Positions 10,880 to 46,935 are shown, counted from the stretch's first letter. The stretch is DNA of 64,000 nt from an uncultured Enterobacteriaceae bacterium (GCA_964479045.1 CAYZJI010000012.1:9321-73320); one strand, 5' to 3'. Translations and numbers: made by a program. The notes: generated from the sequence alone by a model not told the origin.

Positions 10880-10956
10880 TGGTGGCTATGGGTAGACTCG
10901 AACTACCGACCTCAGCATTATGAGTGCCGCGCTCTAACCGGCTGAGCTACATAGCC
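10880..10956 (-). tRNA. tRNA-Met (elongator, CAT)
   Basis: GGCTATGTAGCTCAGCCGGTTAGAGCGCGGCACTCATAATGCTGAGGTCGGTAGTTCGAGTCTACCCATAGCCACCA; 77-nt cloverleaf, paired G1-C72, encoded CCA, acceptor stem like elongator tRNA-Met. Confidence 0.93.
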
Positions 10957-42069: not shown

Positions 42070-42330
42070 TCAGATTCCCATATTGCTCAACGTCACCATG
42101 ATGTCATTCATGATGGCGGTGGCGCGGGGATGTTCCGCCTCAAAGTGTTGAATCGATTCCCTGAGATTGTCGATTAACCCCTCGTTTTCATCTTCCGGAT
42201 TGTCAAGTTTGATTTCCAGTTCACTGATAAGCTGGTTCAGACGTGACCTTGATTCTGAATCATCAGAGGCCAGATGATTTATTTCATCACGCAGGCGTTC
42301 AAGAGAGTCTTGTAGTTTCTTTCTGTACAT
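42070..42330 (-). CDS. DUF4404-like small protein
   Basis: Ends FEAEHPRATAIMNDIMVTLSNMGI; start 42330, because the track start lies inside the tRNA. Confidence 0.85.
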   Translation of the reverse strand: MYRKKLQDSLERLRDEINHLASDDSESRSRLNQLISELEIKLDNPEDENEGLIDNLRESIQHFEAEHPRATAIMNDIMVTLSNMGI

Positions 42331-42355: not shown

Positions 42356-42666
42356 TGGTGGGCCCGGTAGGACTTGAACCTACGACCCATGGATTCTCTT
42401 GTCCCAGCATTACTGATGGGGGAGGACTATCTCATCACCCTCAACCGGATTGTTAGGGCGCGGGACGCTCGTGCCTGTTATCAAGAACACTGAAGTTCTC
42501 AGGTAGTCTCTGCACCTTCCGGAAGTGTACTTCCGGCTTGGCTCAGGATTGCCATCAGTTATACTGATATGGTTTCCCTGAATTCATCCCGTTCATTTCA
42601 TATCTTTCGATATGAACGCACCTTCTTTGATGAGTCCACTGCTCTAACCAACTGAGCTACAGGCCC
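42356..42666 (-). tRNA. ileX: tRNA-Ile2 (CAT, lysidine type) interrupted by a group I intron; exon 1 = 42666-42630, exon 2 = 42395-42356
   Basis: Spliced GGGCCTGTAGCTCAGTTGGTTAGAGCAGTGGACTCAT|AATCCATGGGTCGTAGGTTCAAGTCCTACCGGGCCCACCA folds as a 77-nt cloverleaf; position after rpoD matches ileX synteny. Confidence 0.9.
42396..42629 (-). ncRNA. Group I self-splicing intron, 234 nt, no ORF (IC3-like)
   Basis: Inserted after the CAT anticodon; 5' exon ends in U, intron ends in G; P (AAUUCAGGGAA), Q (AAUCCUGAGCC), R (GUGCAGAGACUA) and S (GAUAGUCC) elements; P7 GACUA/UAGUC; P3 GGGAUG/CGUCCC. Confidence 0.93.
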
Positions 42667-42727
42667 AAATATTTTTTAAATTTTATCAGGTTTTAACACC
42701 ATGGTTACTAAATATTATTATATAATC

Positions 42728-42751
42728 AGATTATGAAAAATTTCATAATCT
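42728..42751. repeat. Perfect 10-4-10 inverted repeat upstream of the HNH gene
   Basis: AGATTATGAA-AAAT-TTCATAATCT, immediately after TATAAT (42721-42726) and before AAAGGA. Confidence 0.8.
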
Positions 42752-42766
42752 ATAAAGGAATATTGG

Positions 42767-43138
42767 ATGAAAAAATGTGTAAATTGCCAAAAAGGTCTCC
42801 GGGGAAGACAAACCAAATTTTGTTGTCGCAAATGCAAAAACATATACAACAATCTTAATTACCAATCGTATCTTGCACAGCAAAAACGCGGTAAGGATAG
42901 AAAGCTGGAGTTGATAAAACTCAAAGGCGGCAAGTGTGCACGATGTGGATACGATAAGAATTTTTCTGCATTGGAGTTTCATCATCCAGCGCCGAATGAA
43001 AAGGAATTTCAACTGGATTTGAGGTCGCTTTCCAATCGGAAATGGGACGTAATAATAAATGAAGCAAAGGAGTGCTTGTTACTTTGTTCAAATTGTCATG
43101 CTGAACTACATCATCCGGAATGCAGGTTAAGAGCATAA
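42767..43138 (+). CDS. Free-standing HNH endonuclease with N-terminal zinc-finger-like module
   Basis: CVNC..KFCCRKC N-terminus; CARCGY...ALEFHH...KECLLLCSNCHAELHH core; about 40% GC by hand count. Confidence 0.85.
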   Translation: MKKCVNCQKGLRGRQTKFCCRKCKNIYNNLNYQSYLAQQKRGKDRKLELIKLKGGKCARCGYDKNFSALEFHHPAPNEKEFQLDLRSLSNRKWDVIINEAKECLLLCSNCHAELHHPECRLRA

Positions 43139-43152
43139 CCTGCGTTTCTGAC

Positions 43153-43187
43153 AAACCTTCCTGGACTTAATCCAGGAAGGTTTTCAG
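43153..43187 (+). terminator. 13-bp perfect hairpin with the rpoD stop codon in the loop; likely terminator between HNH gene and rpoD
   Basis: AAACCTTCCTGGA-CTTAA-TCCAGGAAGGTTT followed by TCAGTT on the + strand. Confidence 0.65.
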
Positions 43188-45038
43188 TTGCTCGGAACGC
43201 GAGGGGTGACGCAGTTTGCGTAACGCTTTGGCTTCAATCTGACGAATACGCTCACGGGTCACATCAAACTGTTTGCCGACTTCTTCCAGAGTGTGATCGG
43301 TATTCATGTCGATACCGAAACGCATACGCAGCACTTTGGCTTCACGTGGAGTAAGGCCTTCCAGTGCTTCACGGGTGGTGCGACGCAGACCTTCAATCCC
43401 GGCCGAATCACTGGGCGCGAGTATGTTCAGGTCTTCAATGAAATCACCCAGATGTGAATCTTCATCATCACCAATCGGGGTTTCCATTGAGATCGGTTCT
43501 TTGGCGATCTTCAAGACCTTGCGGATCTTCTCCTCCGGCATTTCCATTTTTTCTGCCAGTTCTTCCGGTGTCGGTTCGCGGCCCTTTTCCTGCAGGATCT
43601 GGCGTGAGATACGATTGAGTTTGTTGATGGTCTCGATCATATGCACTGGTATACGTATGGTGCGGGCCTGATCGGCGATGGAACGCGTAATGGCCTGACG
43701 TATCCACCAGGTTGCGTAGGTTGAGAATTTATAACCGCGCCGGTATTCGAACTTGTCTACGGCTTTCATCAGGCCGATGTTTCCCTCCTGGATCAGATCA
43801 AGGAACAACAGACCGCGGTTGGTATATTTTTTGGCAATGGAGATCACCAGACGCAGATTGGCTTCCACCATTTCCTTCTTGGCGCGACGTGCTTTGGCTT
43901 CGCCGATGGAAATCCGGCGGTTGATTTCCTTGATGTCACTGATACTCAGGTCATCAACAAATTTTGCCGCCAGTGCTTCCTGGATGCGAATGATATCTTC
44001 CTGCAGTTCCTTGATGTTTTTTGCATAAGGTTTGCTGCGGGATTTGGCCAGAGTCTTGGTCCATTGCGTATTGATTTCATTCCCTGGGAACAGGGTTATG
44101 AATTCCTTGCGCGGCATTTTGCCCAGCTTGACACAAAGATTCATGATGTCGCGCTCGGCGCCACGAATCACCTCTATCAAGTGCCGCACGTTATTGGTCA
44201 GAATGTCAATAAACTTGGGGGCCAGCCGCAAACTCAGAAAAGTCTGGCAGAGTTCATTCTGCAGTTCCCGGGATTTTTTATGTGCGCGGCCATTGCGCTT
44301 GATGGCCCGTACCAGCTTGGTGTTGATTTTTTCAATGGCTTCGATGTGCGCACGAACTTCCTCCGGATCGAGCATGGCTTCCGGTTCTTCTTCACTCTCG
44401 CCGGATTCGTTTTCTTCGTCATCATCATTATCATTACCAGCACTTGTGGCCAGACGTGGCTCACCATCAGCATCTACCGGCATATGGCCGCTGTCCGGAT
44501 ATTCCTCGGTGTCATTGAAACCCAGAATGATGTCACTGAGCTTGATTTCTTCTCTGGCAATCGAATGATAGTTTTGCAGCAGGGTATCGATGGTGCCCGG
44601 ATAACAGGCGAGCGCTTCCAGTACCTGGTTGATGCCTTCCTCAATGCGCTTGGCAATCTTGATTTCGCCTTCACGGGTGAGCAGATCAACCGTGCCCATC
44701 TCGCGCATATACATGCGTACCGGATCAGTAGTGCGGCCAAATTCGCTTTCGACACTGGCCAGTGCTGCTGCCGCTTCAGCCGCTGCTTCTTCATCCGGAC
44801 CTTCAGTGCTGTCGGTCATGATGATTTCAAGATCGGGCGGGGATTCATACACAGTGATCCCCATGTCATTAATCATGTTAATGATGTCTTCGATCTGCTC
44901 TGGATCGACAATATCGTCCGGCAGATGGTCATTGACCTCGTGATAGGTCAGGAAGCCCTGCTCCTTACCTTTGGCGATCAGTACCTTCAGTTGCGACTGG
45001 TCGTCTTCTTGCTCAATCTGCTCAATATTATTTTCCAT
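43167..45038 (-). CDS. rpoD: RNA polymerase primary sigma factor
   Basis: Regions 1.1-4: [57 protein letters not shown]. Confidence 0.99.
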
Positions 45039-45186: not shown

Positions 45187-46935
45187 TCAGGTGTCGGACA
45201 GTTTGCGAAGGTCGCTTGGGGTACTGAGGTTGTTAAGCAGCGAATCACGTTGTTTCTTCCGGTGGTCTCTTTCAATCTTTGAAATATAGTCCATAAATTG
45301 CTGTTTGATGGCCTTTTCTTCAAGGCCCGCTTCATCCGACAGCAACGGGTCTTCCATGGCGGCCAGTTCCCGCAGGCGCTGTTCAAAACGGGTTTCCCGC
45401 CAGTGTTCCAGTATGCCGGCGCAGGTCACTCCGGGATGTTGCTGGATGTAGTCCAGCAGTTCCCTGAGAAAATCCACGCCTTTTTCTACTATTCCGGCCA
45501 GCCGTTCAACAATCTGCTCGTCACGGCCCAGGTCCGGATGGTGCAGCAACAGACGTATGGCCTTGCTGACATGCGGAATGTGGATAGTATTACCCGGAGC
45601 TTTTTGCGGGTTGCGGGTTACTGCGGCGGCTCTTGTGGCGATTGGTGTGCCCGTGATTAAACCTTTCAATGATTCAAGCGGTATCCGGCTCAGAGCTGCG
45701 AGGTCACTCATTATCAATTCACGCAGCGCGCCCGCCGGGAGTCTGGACAAATAGGGCAGGGCCTTTTCCGCCAGTCTAGCCTGACCTTCACGGCTGTTCA
45801 TGTCTGTATTTTCTTTAAGATGATTTAACAGATAATCAGACAAGGGCATGTGGTTCACCGTATCATTGAATTGCTCCGGGCCATGCTTGCGTATGAATGT
45901 GTCCGGATCTTCACTCTCCGGCATGAACATGAAATACACCTGGCGGCCTTCGCGTAACAACGGTAAAGAAATTTCCAGTGCGCGCCATGCAGCTTTCTGG
46001 CCGGCGGTATCGCCGTCAAAACAGAACACGAGCTGCGGGCAGATTTTGAATAATCGATCCAGATGATCCGGCGTCACCGCCGTGCCCAGTGTGGCAACGG
46101 CATTGGCTACGCCATGCTGCGCCAGTGCCAGGACATCCATGTATCCTTCGACCACAAACACACGTTCCAGATCGCGCAACTTGCGTTTGGCCTGATACAG
46201 GCCATAGAGCTCGCGGCCTTTATGAAAAATCGGTGTTTCCGGCGAGTTCAGATATTTCGGTGTCCCATCACCCAGGACACGGCCGCCAATGCCGATGGCG
46301 CGGCCGCGCTGATCGCGGATGGGATAGATGATGCGATCACGGAAACGGTCGTAATAACCACCATTTTCTTTTTTGATGATCATGCCGATTTTGTCGAGCC
46401 GCAACAGTGCGGCATTGGACTGGCCCATGCTGGTGATCAATCCATCCCAGCCGGAGGGTGCAAAACCCAGTTCGAATTCCGCCGCAAGTTGCCCCGACAG
46501 TCCGCGGTTTTTCAGATACTCGACAGCCCGCGGCGCTTCCGGATGTTCGCGCAGTTGCCGGGCATAATGTTTGATGACCATCTCCATCAACTCATAGAGC
46601 TCAGTCAATCCGCTTTCTTTGGGACTGACACCCCCTTCGCGCGGCACCTCCAGACCCACGCGGCTCGCGAGATCTTCAATAGCGTCGACAAAATCCTTGC
46701 CGGTGTAATCCATTAAAAAGGAAATGGCCGTGCCGTTCGCACCACAGCCGAAGCAATGGTAGAACTGTTTTTCCTGGCTGACGGTGAACGACGGTGTTTT
46801 TTCCTCATGGAACGGACAGCGGGCCTGATGATTACGGCCGGCCTTGCGCAACGGCACATAGCTGTCGATGACATCGACAATGTCGATGCGGGTCAGGAGA
46901 TCATCAATAAATTGCTGGGGAATGCGGCCGGCCAT
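45187..46935 (-). CDS. dnaG: DNA primase
   Basis: CPFHEEKTPSF zinc finger, KYLNSPET and EGYMDV TOPRIM. Confidence 0.98.
   Translation of the reverse strand: MAGRIPQQFIDDLLTRIDIVDVIDSYVPLRKAGRNHQARCPFHEEKTPSFTVSQEKQFYHCFGCGANGTAISFLMDYTGKDFVDAIEDLASRVGLEVPREGGVSPKESGLTELYELMEMVIKHYARQLREHPEAPRAVEYLKNRGLSGQLAAEFELGFAPSGWDGLITSMGQSNAALLRLDKIGMIIKKENGGYYDRFRDRIIYPIRDQRGRAIGIGGRVLGDGTPKYLNSPETPIFHKGRELYGLYQAKRKLRDLERVFVVEGYMDVLALAQHGVANAVATLGTAVTPDHLDRLFKICPQLVFCFDGDTAGQKAAWRALEISLPLLREGRQVYFMFMPESEDPDTFIRKHGPEQFNDTVNHMPLSDYLLNHLKENTDMNSREGQARLAEKALPYLSRLPAGALRELIMSDLAALSRIPLESLKGLITGTPIATRAAAVTRNPQKAPGNTIHIPHVSKAIRLLLHHPDLGRDEQIVERLAGIVEKGVDFLRELLDYIQQHPGVTCAGILEHWRETRFEQRLRELAAMEDPLLSDEAGLEEKAIKQQFMDYISKIERDHRKKQRDSLLNNLSTPSDLRKLSDT

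Follow-up and report, generated by a model that had tools for sequence, protein, structure and literature searches.

A tRNA-Ile2 gene split by a group I intron downstream of rpoD, and an adjacent HNH nuclease gene as a candidate partner of the intron

In a 64,000-nucleotide (nt) stretch of DNA from an uncultured Enterobacteriaceae bacterium (GCA_964479045.1 CAYZJI010000012.1:9321-73320), hereafter the window, a tRNA gene on the minus strand at 42356-42666 is split by a group I intron, and lies next to a small open reading frame (ORF), ORF123, for a putative HNH nuclease. All coordinates are window positions, and L-numbers are labels of loci surveyed in this analysis. The split gene has three parts:

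42630-42666, minus strand: 5′ exon of tRNA-Ile2, 37 nt, tRNA nt 1-36; ends in ...CUCAU with the anticodon CAU at its end; U36, which is U(-1), at 42630
42396-42629, minus strand: group I intron, 234 nt, ORF-less, of the IC3-like 'Ile2.5Ug' class, gammaproteobacterial subtype; terminal (omega) G at 42396
42356-42395, minus strand: 3′ exon of tRNA-Ile2, 40 nt, tRNA nt 37-76 with the encoded CCA included; AAUCC...CCA

Read on the minus strand, the 5′ exon (42666-42630) is GGGCCUGUAGCUCAGUUGGUUAGAGCAGUGGACUCAU, the intron ends in ...GGGACAAGAG, and the 3′ exon (42395-42356) is AAUCCAUGGGUCGUAGGUUCAAGUCCUACCGGGCCCACCA. The splice sites were re-derived by the U(-1)/omega-G rule, since ARAGORN slides the boundaries when introns are allowed. 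The intron is inserted between anticodon nt 36 and nt 37, in the loop C-U-C-A-U/A-A (slash, insertion point). A preliminary description of this DNA, made from the sequence alone, had stated that removing 42629-42396 leaves a 77-nt tRNA with a CAT anticodon, and the exons joined in silico do give a 77-nt canonical cloverleaf with anticodon CAU and an encoded CCA, reported by ARAGORN as tRNA(cat) and labelled Met. The Rfam family Intron_gpI (RF00028) matches 42403-42639 with 80.4 bits, for a gathering score of 50 (E 7.6e-19, model positions 1-253 of 253), and is the sole non-tRNA RNA family matched in the window. The folding stability of the whole precursor is above that of shuffled versions (z = -3.5). 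We conclude that 42356-42666 is a tRNA-Ile2 gene interrupted by a group I intron, a chance match being far out of question.

The elements of the intron are given below, together with their behaviour in an alignment of 12 gamma-type introns from different organisms:

42619-42632, minus strand: P1; exon C-A-U and intron C paired with G-G-U-G, all four pairs invariant in the 12 relatives
42594-42618, minus strand: P2 hairpin with a GAAA tetraloop at 42605-42608; compensatory changes at 9 of 10 pairs
42585-42591 (5′ strand) with 42461-42467 (3′ strand), minus strand: P3; invariant and fully paired in 12 sequences
42514-42581, minus strand: P4-P5-P6 domain; P4 and P6 invariant, P5 covarying at 5 pairs and P6a at 4
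42504-42510 (5′ strand) with 42424-42429 (3′ strand), minus strand: P7, enclosing the 3′ strand of P3 and P8; invariant and fully paired in 12 sequences
42474-42503, minus strand: extra hairpin, 'P7.1', between the 5′ strand of P7 and the 3′ strand of P3; base invariant, distal stem covarying
42436-42460, minus strand: P8; 3 covarying pairs
42403-42420, minus strand: P9 hairpin with a GUAA loop at 42410-42413; 6 of 7 pairs covarying in relatives, one U×C mismatch in the window copy

The wobble of P1 at the 5′ splice site joins U36 (42630) to the G at 42621. All the elements named in the preliminary description, P1 (CAU/GUG, with U-G at the splice site), P2 with its GAAA loop, P3 to P8, P9 with its GUAA loop and the final G, were located. 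It had also called the tRNA perfect: the cloverleaf is canonical, with two G·U wobbles (U6·G67 and G27·U43) which are normal, and P9 of the intron has its one mismatch.

Covariation was measured by counting pairs in the 12-intron alignment, with the 3′ partners slid by 1-3 columns, or shuffles, as controls. Standard pairing was found in 96.1% of the cells, compared to 35-44% in the slid controls. Changes on both sides occurred at 29 of the 71 pairs, against 6-13 in the slid controls and a mean of 16.6 in the shuffles, none of which (0/500) reached 29. The covarying stems are peripheral (P2, P5, P6a, distal P7.1, P8 and P9), and the elements that never vary among the 12 introns are P1, P3, P4, P6, P7 and the base of P7.1. 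Changes thus distributed sit where they would be expected in a working ribozyme. Together with the Rfam covariance-model match, they bear out the group I assignment made earlier. Every invariant column is kept in the window intron. Its closest relative, L141, is 94% identical over the intron and shares its GUAA loop; the differences between the two are mostly at loop positions or preserve pairing. L024 and L141 introns are 83-94% identical to it.

IC3 introns are compact, have no P5abc and carry tetraloops on P2 and P9. The window intron is compact, without P5abc and with GAAA in L2 and GUAA in L9, yet it has the extra hairpin between P7 and P3′. This hairpin holds a conserved internal loop (U-G/A-A-U-N-A); introns of the gamma and intermediate types have it, those of the Azoarcus-like type do not, and it may serve for a tertiary contact.

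The spread of the class was examined by scanning a species-level genome collection with two conserved core strings, which gave at least 120 loci; frequencies drawn from them are sample values rather than full counts, and the window's own genome is not among the loci listed. A tRNA(CAU) of the GGGCC...-type split after nt 36 made up 23 among the 120 matches listed, and fell into three sequence types:

Short, Azoarcus-like type (betaproteobacteria): intron of 204-223 nt; L003, L088, L105 and L115; 45-53% identity to the window intron
Intermediate type: intron of 249-269 nt; L030, L038, L042 and L097; about 56-57% identity
Gammaproteobacterial type: intron of 232-316 nt; 15 loci and the window; 68-83% identity

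Hosts of the gamma type include Woeseiaceae, Steroidobacteraceae, Lysobacter, Luteimonas, Rhodanobacteraceae and Pseudomonadales bins, and rpoD lies upstream in most of these loci. The same split arrangement was seen in about 60 further metagenomic loci. Ile2.5Ug is, according to Williams, one of four classical classes of intron-split bacterial tRNAs, all of subgroup IC3, among 5,292 split tRNA genes mapped (bioRxiv 10.1101/2020.01.27.920355). The insertion site, U(-1) and omega G of the window intron agree with the definition of this class, and would place it there. The class being classical and widespread, the novelty granted to the intron in the preliminary description was rated too high; what the window copy adds is a gammaproteobacterial subtype with an extra hairpin.

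The prototype of the class is the Azoarcus intron. It interrupts the anticodon loop, leaving 40 nt of 3′ exon, measures 205 nt and is efficient at self-splicing in vitro (PMC13168695). The insertion site is common to it and the window intron, as the preliminary description had stated. The two introns also share the host gene, with insertion after nt 36 and a 40-nt 3′ exon, P1 (CAU/GUG with U·G), a GAAA-capped P2, the core strings GAGCCAAGC and GAAGGUG(Y)AGAGACUA, the terminal G, and the absence of an ORF and of a P5abc extension. They differ in length (205 nt, against 234 nt in the window) and in sequence, with about 45-53% identity as measured on the Azoarcus-like introns L105, L115, L003 and L088 rather than on the Azoarcus sequence itself. 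The window intron has in addition the conserved hairpin at 42474-42503; the sequences of P6a, P8 and P9 differ, and its host is a gamma- and not a betaproteobacterium. The gamma subtype offers a naturally diversified and covariation-rich relative of the Azoarcus model ribozyme. Three loci in nominally archaeal bins also match the group I core pattern, L011 and L040 (Pacearchaeota) and L061 (Methanosarcinaceae), with tRNA exons flanking the core in L011 and L040; mis-binning was suspected for similar archaeal cases by Williams 2020 (bioRxiv 10.1101/2020.01.27.920355).

The identity of the tRNA has to be read from more than its anticodon, and the neighbouring features are needed here:

45187-46935, minus strand: dnaG (Pfam), upstream of the tRNA on the same strand
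43167-45038, minus strand: rpoD (Pfam), upstream of the tRNA on the same strand
42767-43138, plus strand: ORF123, 123 aa, in divergent orientation to the tRNA and starting 100 nt upstream of it, with rpoD on its other side; predicted HNH (beta-beta-alpha-Me) nuclease having two Cys4 zinc sites
42693-42746, intergenic: overlapping divergent promoter-like sites, at 42746-42717 on the minus strand (tRNA) and 42693-42721 on the plus strand (ORF123), 10/12 matches each in a consensus scan

A tRNA-Ile2 with the anticodon CAU reads AUA after lysidine modification by TilS. The acceptor stem of the split tRNA has C4-G69 and C5-G68, which we take to be TilS identity elements. The AUA codon is genuinely used (6 times in rpoD, 6 times in dnaG, and for 15.6% of Ile codons in the 22 longest ORFs of the window), so that the cell needs an AUA decoder; were the split gene the sole one, splicing would be essential, as the preliminary description had reasoned. 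A tilS-like PP-loop motif was not found in the 64-kb window, which is uninformative either way.

The gene could in principle encode an elongator tRNA-Met, or another CAU tRNA that is not lysidine-modified, since the anticodon cannot by itself separate the two and ARAGORN names the spliced product Met. Against this stands the synteny: the order dnaG-rpoD-tRNA matches the position of ileX in E. coli K-12, where rpsU-dnaG-rpoD are followed by a small opposite-strand gene (mug) and by ileX, annotated tRNA-Ile(CAU). The top E. coli matches of the spliced sequence, 81.8% over all 77 nt, are annotated tRNA-Ile. The first of them, a tRNA-Ile(CAT) copy by a prophage-like island, was set aside as not being the rpoD-linked copy, and the K-12 coordinates gave ileX. 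The window moreover has a distinct elongator-type tRNA-Met (GGCUA...-type) at 10880-10956, and the class is catalogued as Ile2 (bioRxiv 10.1101/2020.01.27.920355). We give a Met identity hardly any weight; the identity supported by these genomic data, and proposed in the preliminary description, is tRNA-Ile2 of the ileX type. The sequences establish the anatomy, family membership, conservation, covariation and synteny of the locus, and splicing itself is a prediction. In the proposed scheme, the gene would be transcribed as a precursor of ~311 nt, in which the intron would fold into P1-P9 with a P3/P7 pseudoknot. Exogenous guanosine would attack after U36, held in the U·G wobble of P1, and the freed exon would then attack after the terminal G (42396), the anticodon stem keeping the exons together. 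The 77-nt tRNA thus released would be matured by TilS and the normal processing enzymes. The alternative is a pseudogene whose intron has lost splicing, AUA being read by another tRNA-Ile2 or by a tRNA-Ile(UAU) elsewhere in the genome. Three points weigh on that side: the 64 kb in view leave room for such a gene elsewhere, P9 has its U×C mismatch, and the 3′ tail of the window intron, ACAAGAG, departs from the usual ...AGUG of the family, though L141 has an identical tail. Decay is, however, hard to reconcile with fully intact exons, with the retention of all invariant core positions, with an Rfam score among the highest of the family and with the conserved ileX position of the locus. Dozens of lineages keep the arrangement with compensatory changes, and no second Ile2 gene exists in the published genomes that carry such introns (PMC8450103). 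The spread of the split gene, 23 among the 120 listed loci and ~60 metagenomic ones, is incompatible with a decaying pseudogene, and we regard this alternative as very unlikely indeed.

Genes of this kind are easily lost in annotation, as the preliminary description had anticipated. Default ARAGORN found only the tRNA-Met at 10880 in the window and missed the split gene; with introns allowed, it called the gene Leu(cag), with boundaries off by 2 nt. tRNAscan-SE 2.0 is not designed for detecting such introns, which explained 36 genomes seemingly without fMet or Ile2 genes (PMC8450103). Other Ile2.5Ug loci (e.g. L024, L079, L056 and L069) were called Gln(ctg), Arg(ccg), Ser(cga) or Leu(cag) by intron-enabled ARAGORN, a mislabelling due to an intron boundary slid by 2-3 nt. 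This means that the genome of the window would seem to lack an AUA decoder unless the intron is recognised, and that many genomes of Gammaproteobacteria are affected by the same kind of error.

The companion HNH gene is more interesting than the intron itself. ORF123 has no Pfam or NCBIfam match at normal thresholds, and Pfam HNH stays below threshold in 49 of 50 members of its family. It does fall in PHROG families of HNH endonucleases (best 1.6e-22). Its AlphaFold (AF2) model has a pLDDT of 94, and the top Foldseek neighbours are all HNH nucleases (Cap5, the HNH domain of Cas9, T4 endonuclease VII and Gme HNH), the matches being weak (E >= 0.17). A sequence search of the PDB gave one marginal match, to the HNH region of LtrA. 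The residues C4/C7/C19/C23, C57/C60/C107/C110, H72-H73, N90 and H111 are invariant in the family alignment, and H115 nearly so, with CxxC pairs on either side of the HNH residues. On these grounds, ORF123 is assigned to the HNH (beta-beta-alpha-metal) nucleases, with an N-terminal zinc ribbon. The family is large: a profile search returned 28,200 clusters (50% identity) at E <= 1e-3 and 267 at E <= 1e-30, and nearly all of the more than 400 database clusters of ORF123 are named 'hypothetical protein'. In some longer representatives of the family (P0121-P0125; 250-360 aa), the 122-position profile matches 2-4 times in tandem, which may reflect tandem duplication or fused gene calls.

Divergence within the ORF123 family amounts to a dN of 0.06-0.16 with saturated dS, the single measurable pair having a dN/dS of 0.115; the gene is under purifying selection. 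The GC content of the ORF was lower than that of the adjacent rpoD in 37 of 37 loci (38.7% against about 50% in the window). All four Ile codons of ORF123 are AUA (0 AUU, 0 AUC), compared to the 15.6% of the long ORFs of the window, which makes translation of the nuclease dependent on the spliced product of the adjacent gene; in 58 members of the family, 70 of the 209 Ile codons are AUA. The promoter scan of the spacer found 5 sites for 2.5 expected, and such consensus matches are weak evidence. A terminator-like hairpin followed by a T-run (a consensus match, minus strand, 42809-42795) lies ~360 nt downstream of the rpoD stop, antisense in the 5′ part of ORF123, and implies convergent transcription over the ORF.

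A homologue of ORF123 was present in 9 among the 120 intron loci listed, always within ~110 nt of the intron-bearing gene or inside it. The gamma-type loci L079 and L069 show the arrangement of the window, with a free-standing, divergent copy, and in L025 the homologue has decayed into two fragments. L019 (Bdellovibrionales) and L120 carry the homologue antisense inside a ~620-nt intron of a tRNA(CAU) spliced between nt 33 and 34. A sense-oriented copy separates the 5′ exon from the ribozyme core in L026, L095 and L112 (all Patescibacteria) and in L040 (Pacearchaeota bin); the tRNA that hosts it reads as Thr(UGU) with one choice of boundary and as Asn(GUU) with another.

The association was also seen from the ORF side. 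Among protein-based look-ups with enough sequence, 5 of 5 showed the ORF 90-219 nt upstream of a split tRNA-Ile2 by rpoD. Among 71 informative homologue loci, about 60 have the ORF placed 72-402 nt upstream of a split tRNA-Ile2. A larger ORF-based sample of 86 loci came from metagenome and viral collections, with contexts as follows:

58 loci: divergent split tRNA-Ile2, with the ORF 72-402 nt upstream
2 loci (L151, L201): intron present, overlooked by the exon detector
2 loci (L209, L210): split tRNA-Ile2 co-directional with the ORF
8 loci: low-GC, phage-like tRNA arrays
3 loci (L203, L211, L216): other
Remainder of the 86 loci: too short for judgement

In the two co-directional cases (L209 1053-1386 and L210 1128-1466, both plus strand), the split tRNA-Ile2 is directly upstream of the HNH ORF. 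None of the 86 loci had the ORF beside an intron-less chromosomal tRNA-Ile2.

Taken as a whole, the locus is best explained, and in our view very probably, by an ileX-type tRNA-Ile2 gene holding an ORF-less IC3-like group I ribozyme, with a probable free-standing homing endonuclease as neighbour. Free-standing homing endonucleases working with an ORF-less intron are known, as 'collaborative' or trans homing (PMC3984707, PMC2790892). By analogy, ORF123 would cut intron-less alleles of tRNA-Ile2, the intron-bearing allele being immune, and recombinational repair would copy the intron and the nuclease gene together into the cut allele. For ORF123 taken separately, the genomic association makes it a candidate for this role with roughly even chances. 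Distances of the intron and of the ORF were compared with those of the host by Mantel tests, using the conserved 240 C-terminal residues of RpoD; a correlation on the whole RpoD high-scoring segment pair (rho near 0) was rejected as variable-region noise. Divergence of the ORF is weakly coupled to that of RpoD (Mantel r 0.30), which is consistent with homing, as are the purifying selection on the ORF, its foreign composition (GC below rpoD in 37 of 37 loci), and its absence from most intron-bearing species with a decayed copy in L025.

Several observations speak against the homing reading, and those of vertical descent against an element active at present. Divergence of the intron tracks that of RpoD (Mantel r 0.65), as in mainly vertical descent. 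Most gamma-type intron loci of the species-level sample are without the ORF, and two or three homologues lie in unrelated contexts. The homology between the window and L141 spans rpoD, the ORF and the split tRNA, and the two look co-inherited rather than recently transferred. Their comparison, meant to reveal a co-conversion tract, gave only a break of synteny where the tRNA ends on its 3′ side. A clear case of recent transfer was not found among the loci compared. The homology with L141 ends exactly at this 3′ end (window about 42352), which points to a rearrangement or integration boundary at the tRNA gene; the genes downstream of it (DUF4404 at 42070-42330 and beyond) are unrelated in L141.

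The main alternative to a homing endonuclease is a retained helper. It could assist the intron as a maturase or chaperone, or else serve the host as a nuclease that is anchored at the locus. Strong purifying selection, a position fixed across many lineages and a largely vertical descent all fit a helper, as do the AUA codons that make translation of ORF123 rely on the spliced tRNA. On the other hand, the ORF is sporadic among intron loci, absent from most gamma-type ones and decayed in L025, so it is not needed for splicing or maintenance of the intron. A protein acting purely as an RNA chaperone would have no need of the catalytic HNH residues, and yet they never vary; homologues are also present in phage-like tRNA arrays where no intron is close by. 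We hold the helper to be unlikely. It could also be that ORF123 is an unrelated neighbour, adjacent by coincidence or through shared ancestry of one gammaproteobacterial clade. The best 80 metagenome matches to ORF123, all 56-84% identical, could be one clade with an inherited gene order, and the homologues in other contexts go in the same direction. Yet the independent intron-based sample gave nine loci with the homologue at or inside the split gene, and these cover Gammaproteobacteria, Bdellovibrionales, Patescibacteria and a Pacearchaeota bin, with different host tRNAs and insertion sites, which makes mere adjacency very improbable.

A homing role for ORF123 can be compared with three known systems. 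As the model of phage collaborative homing predicts for the origin of composite mobile introns, ORFs related to ORF123 are also found embedded in introns. The phage cases, however, lie in protein-coding genes and come with cleavage and mobility data, whereas ORF123 is in a tRNA gene context of a bacterial chromosome, is known here from genes, and bears signs of long vertical residence. I-Ssp6803I, from the intron of a cyanobacterial tRNA-fMet (PMC3984707, PMC3943268), is likewise a homing endonuclease tied to a group I intron of a bacterial tRNA anticodon loop, but it is a PD-(D/E)xK enzyme encoded inside the intron, and ORF123 is of the HNH type and outside it. Free-standing endonucleases of the T4 SegB type are found in phage tRNA clusters (PMC13096335), and homologues of ORF123, 57-62% identical, similarly lie between tRNA genes in low-GC phage-like arrays of the viral collection; SegB is of the GIY-YIG type in contrast to HNH, and the window copy is chromosomal and paired with an intron.

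These comparisons suggest a wider reading, to which we give slightly less than an even chance. HNH homing endonucleases specific to tRNA genes would form a large family that has escaped annotation, ORF123 among them, and its members would represent three stages of a meeting between endonuclease and intron: free-standing among the tRNA genes of phage-like arrays; free-standing next to an ORF-less intron in chromosomal tRNA-Ile2 of Gammaproteobacteria, where the window would be a case of collaborative homing in a bacterial chromosome; and within the P1 loop of tRNA introns, as seen in Bdellovibrionales, in Patescibacteria and in the Pacearchaeota bin. No description of such a three-stage family was found in a literature search. 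There was little evidence for bacterial introns moving horizontally among species according to a 2014 review (PMC3984707). If true, the three-stage reading would help explain the spread of supposedly immobile ORF-less bacterial tRNA introns, and the pairing of intron and HNH nuclease offers a testable account of how they could move.

Two further arrangements were met among the ORF-based loci. In L199 and L221 (1179-1917, minus strand), ARAGORN reported a tRNA-Val split by a 660-nt insert that carries the HNH ORF on the opposite strand; no ribozyme core was detectable in this insert. The nuclease gene may by itself interrupt the tRNA gene, or the call may be false. In L225 (2123-2415, minus strand), the tRNA-Leu(UAA) gene of a low-GC phage-like tRNA array from the viral-contig collection is interrupted by a group I intron of 211 nt, which scores 59.3 bits with Rfam; all phage introns known by 2014 were in protein-coding genes (PMC3984707).

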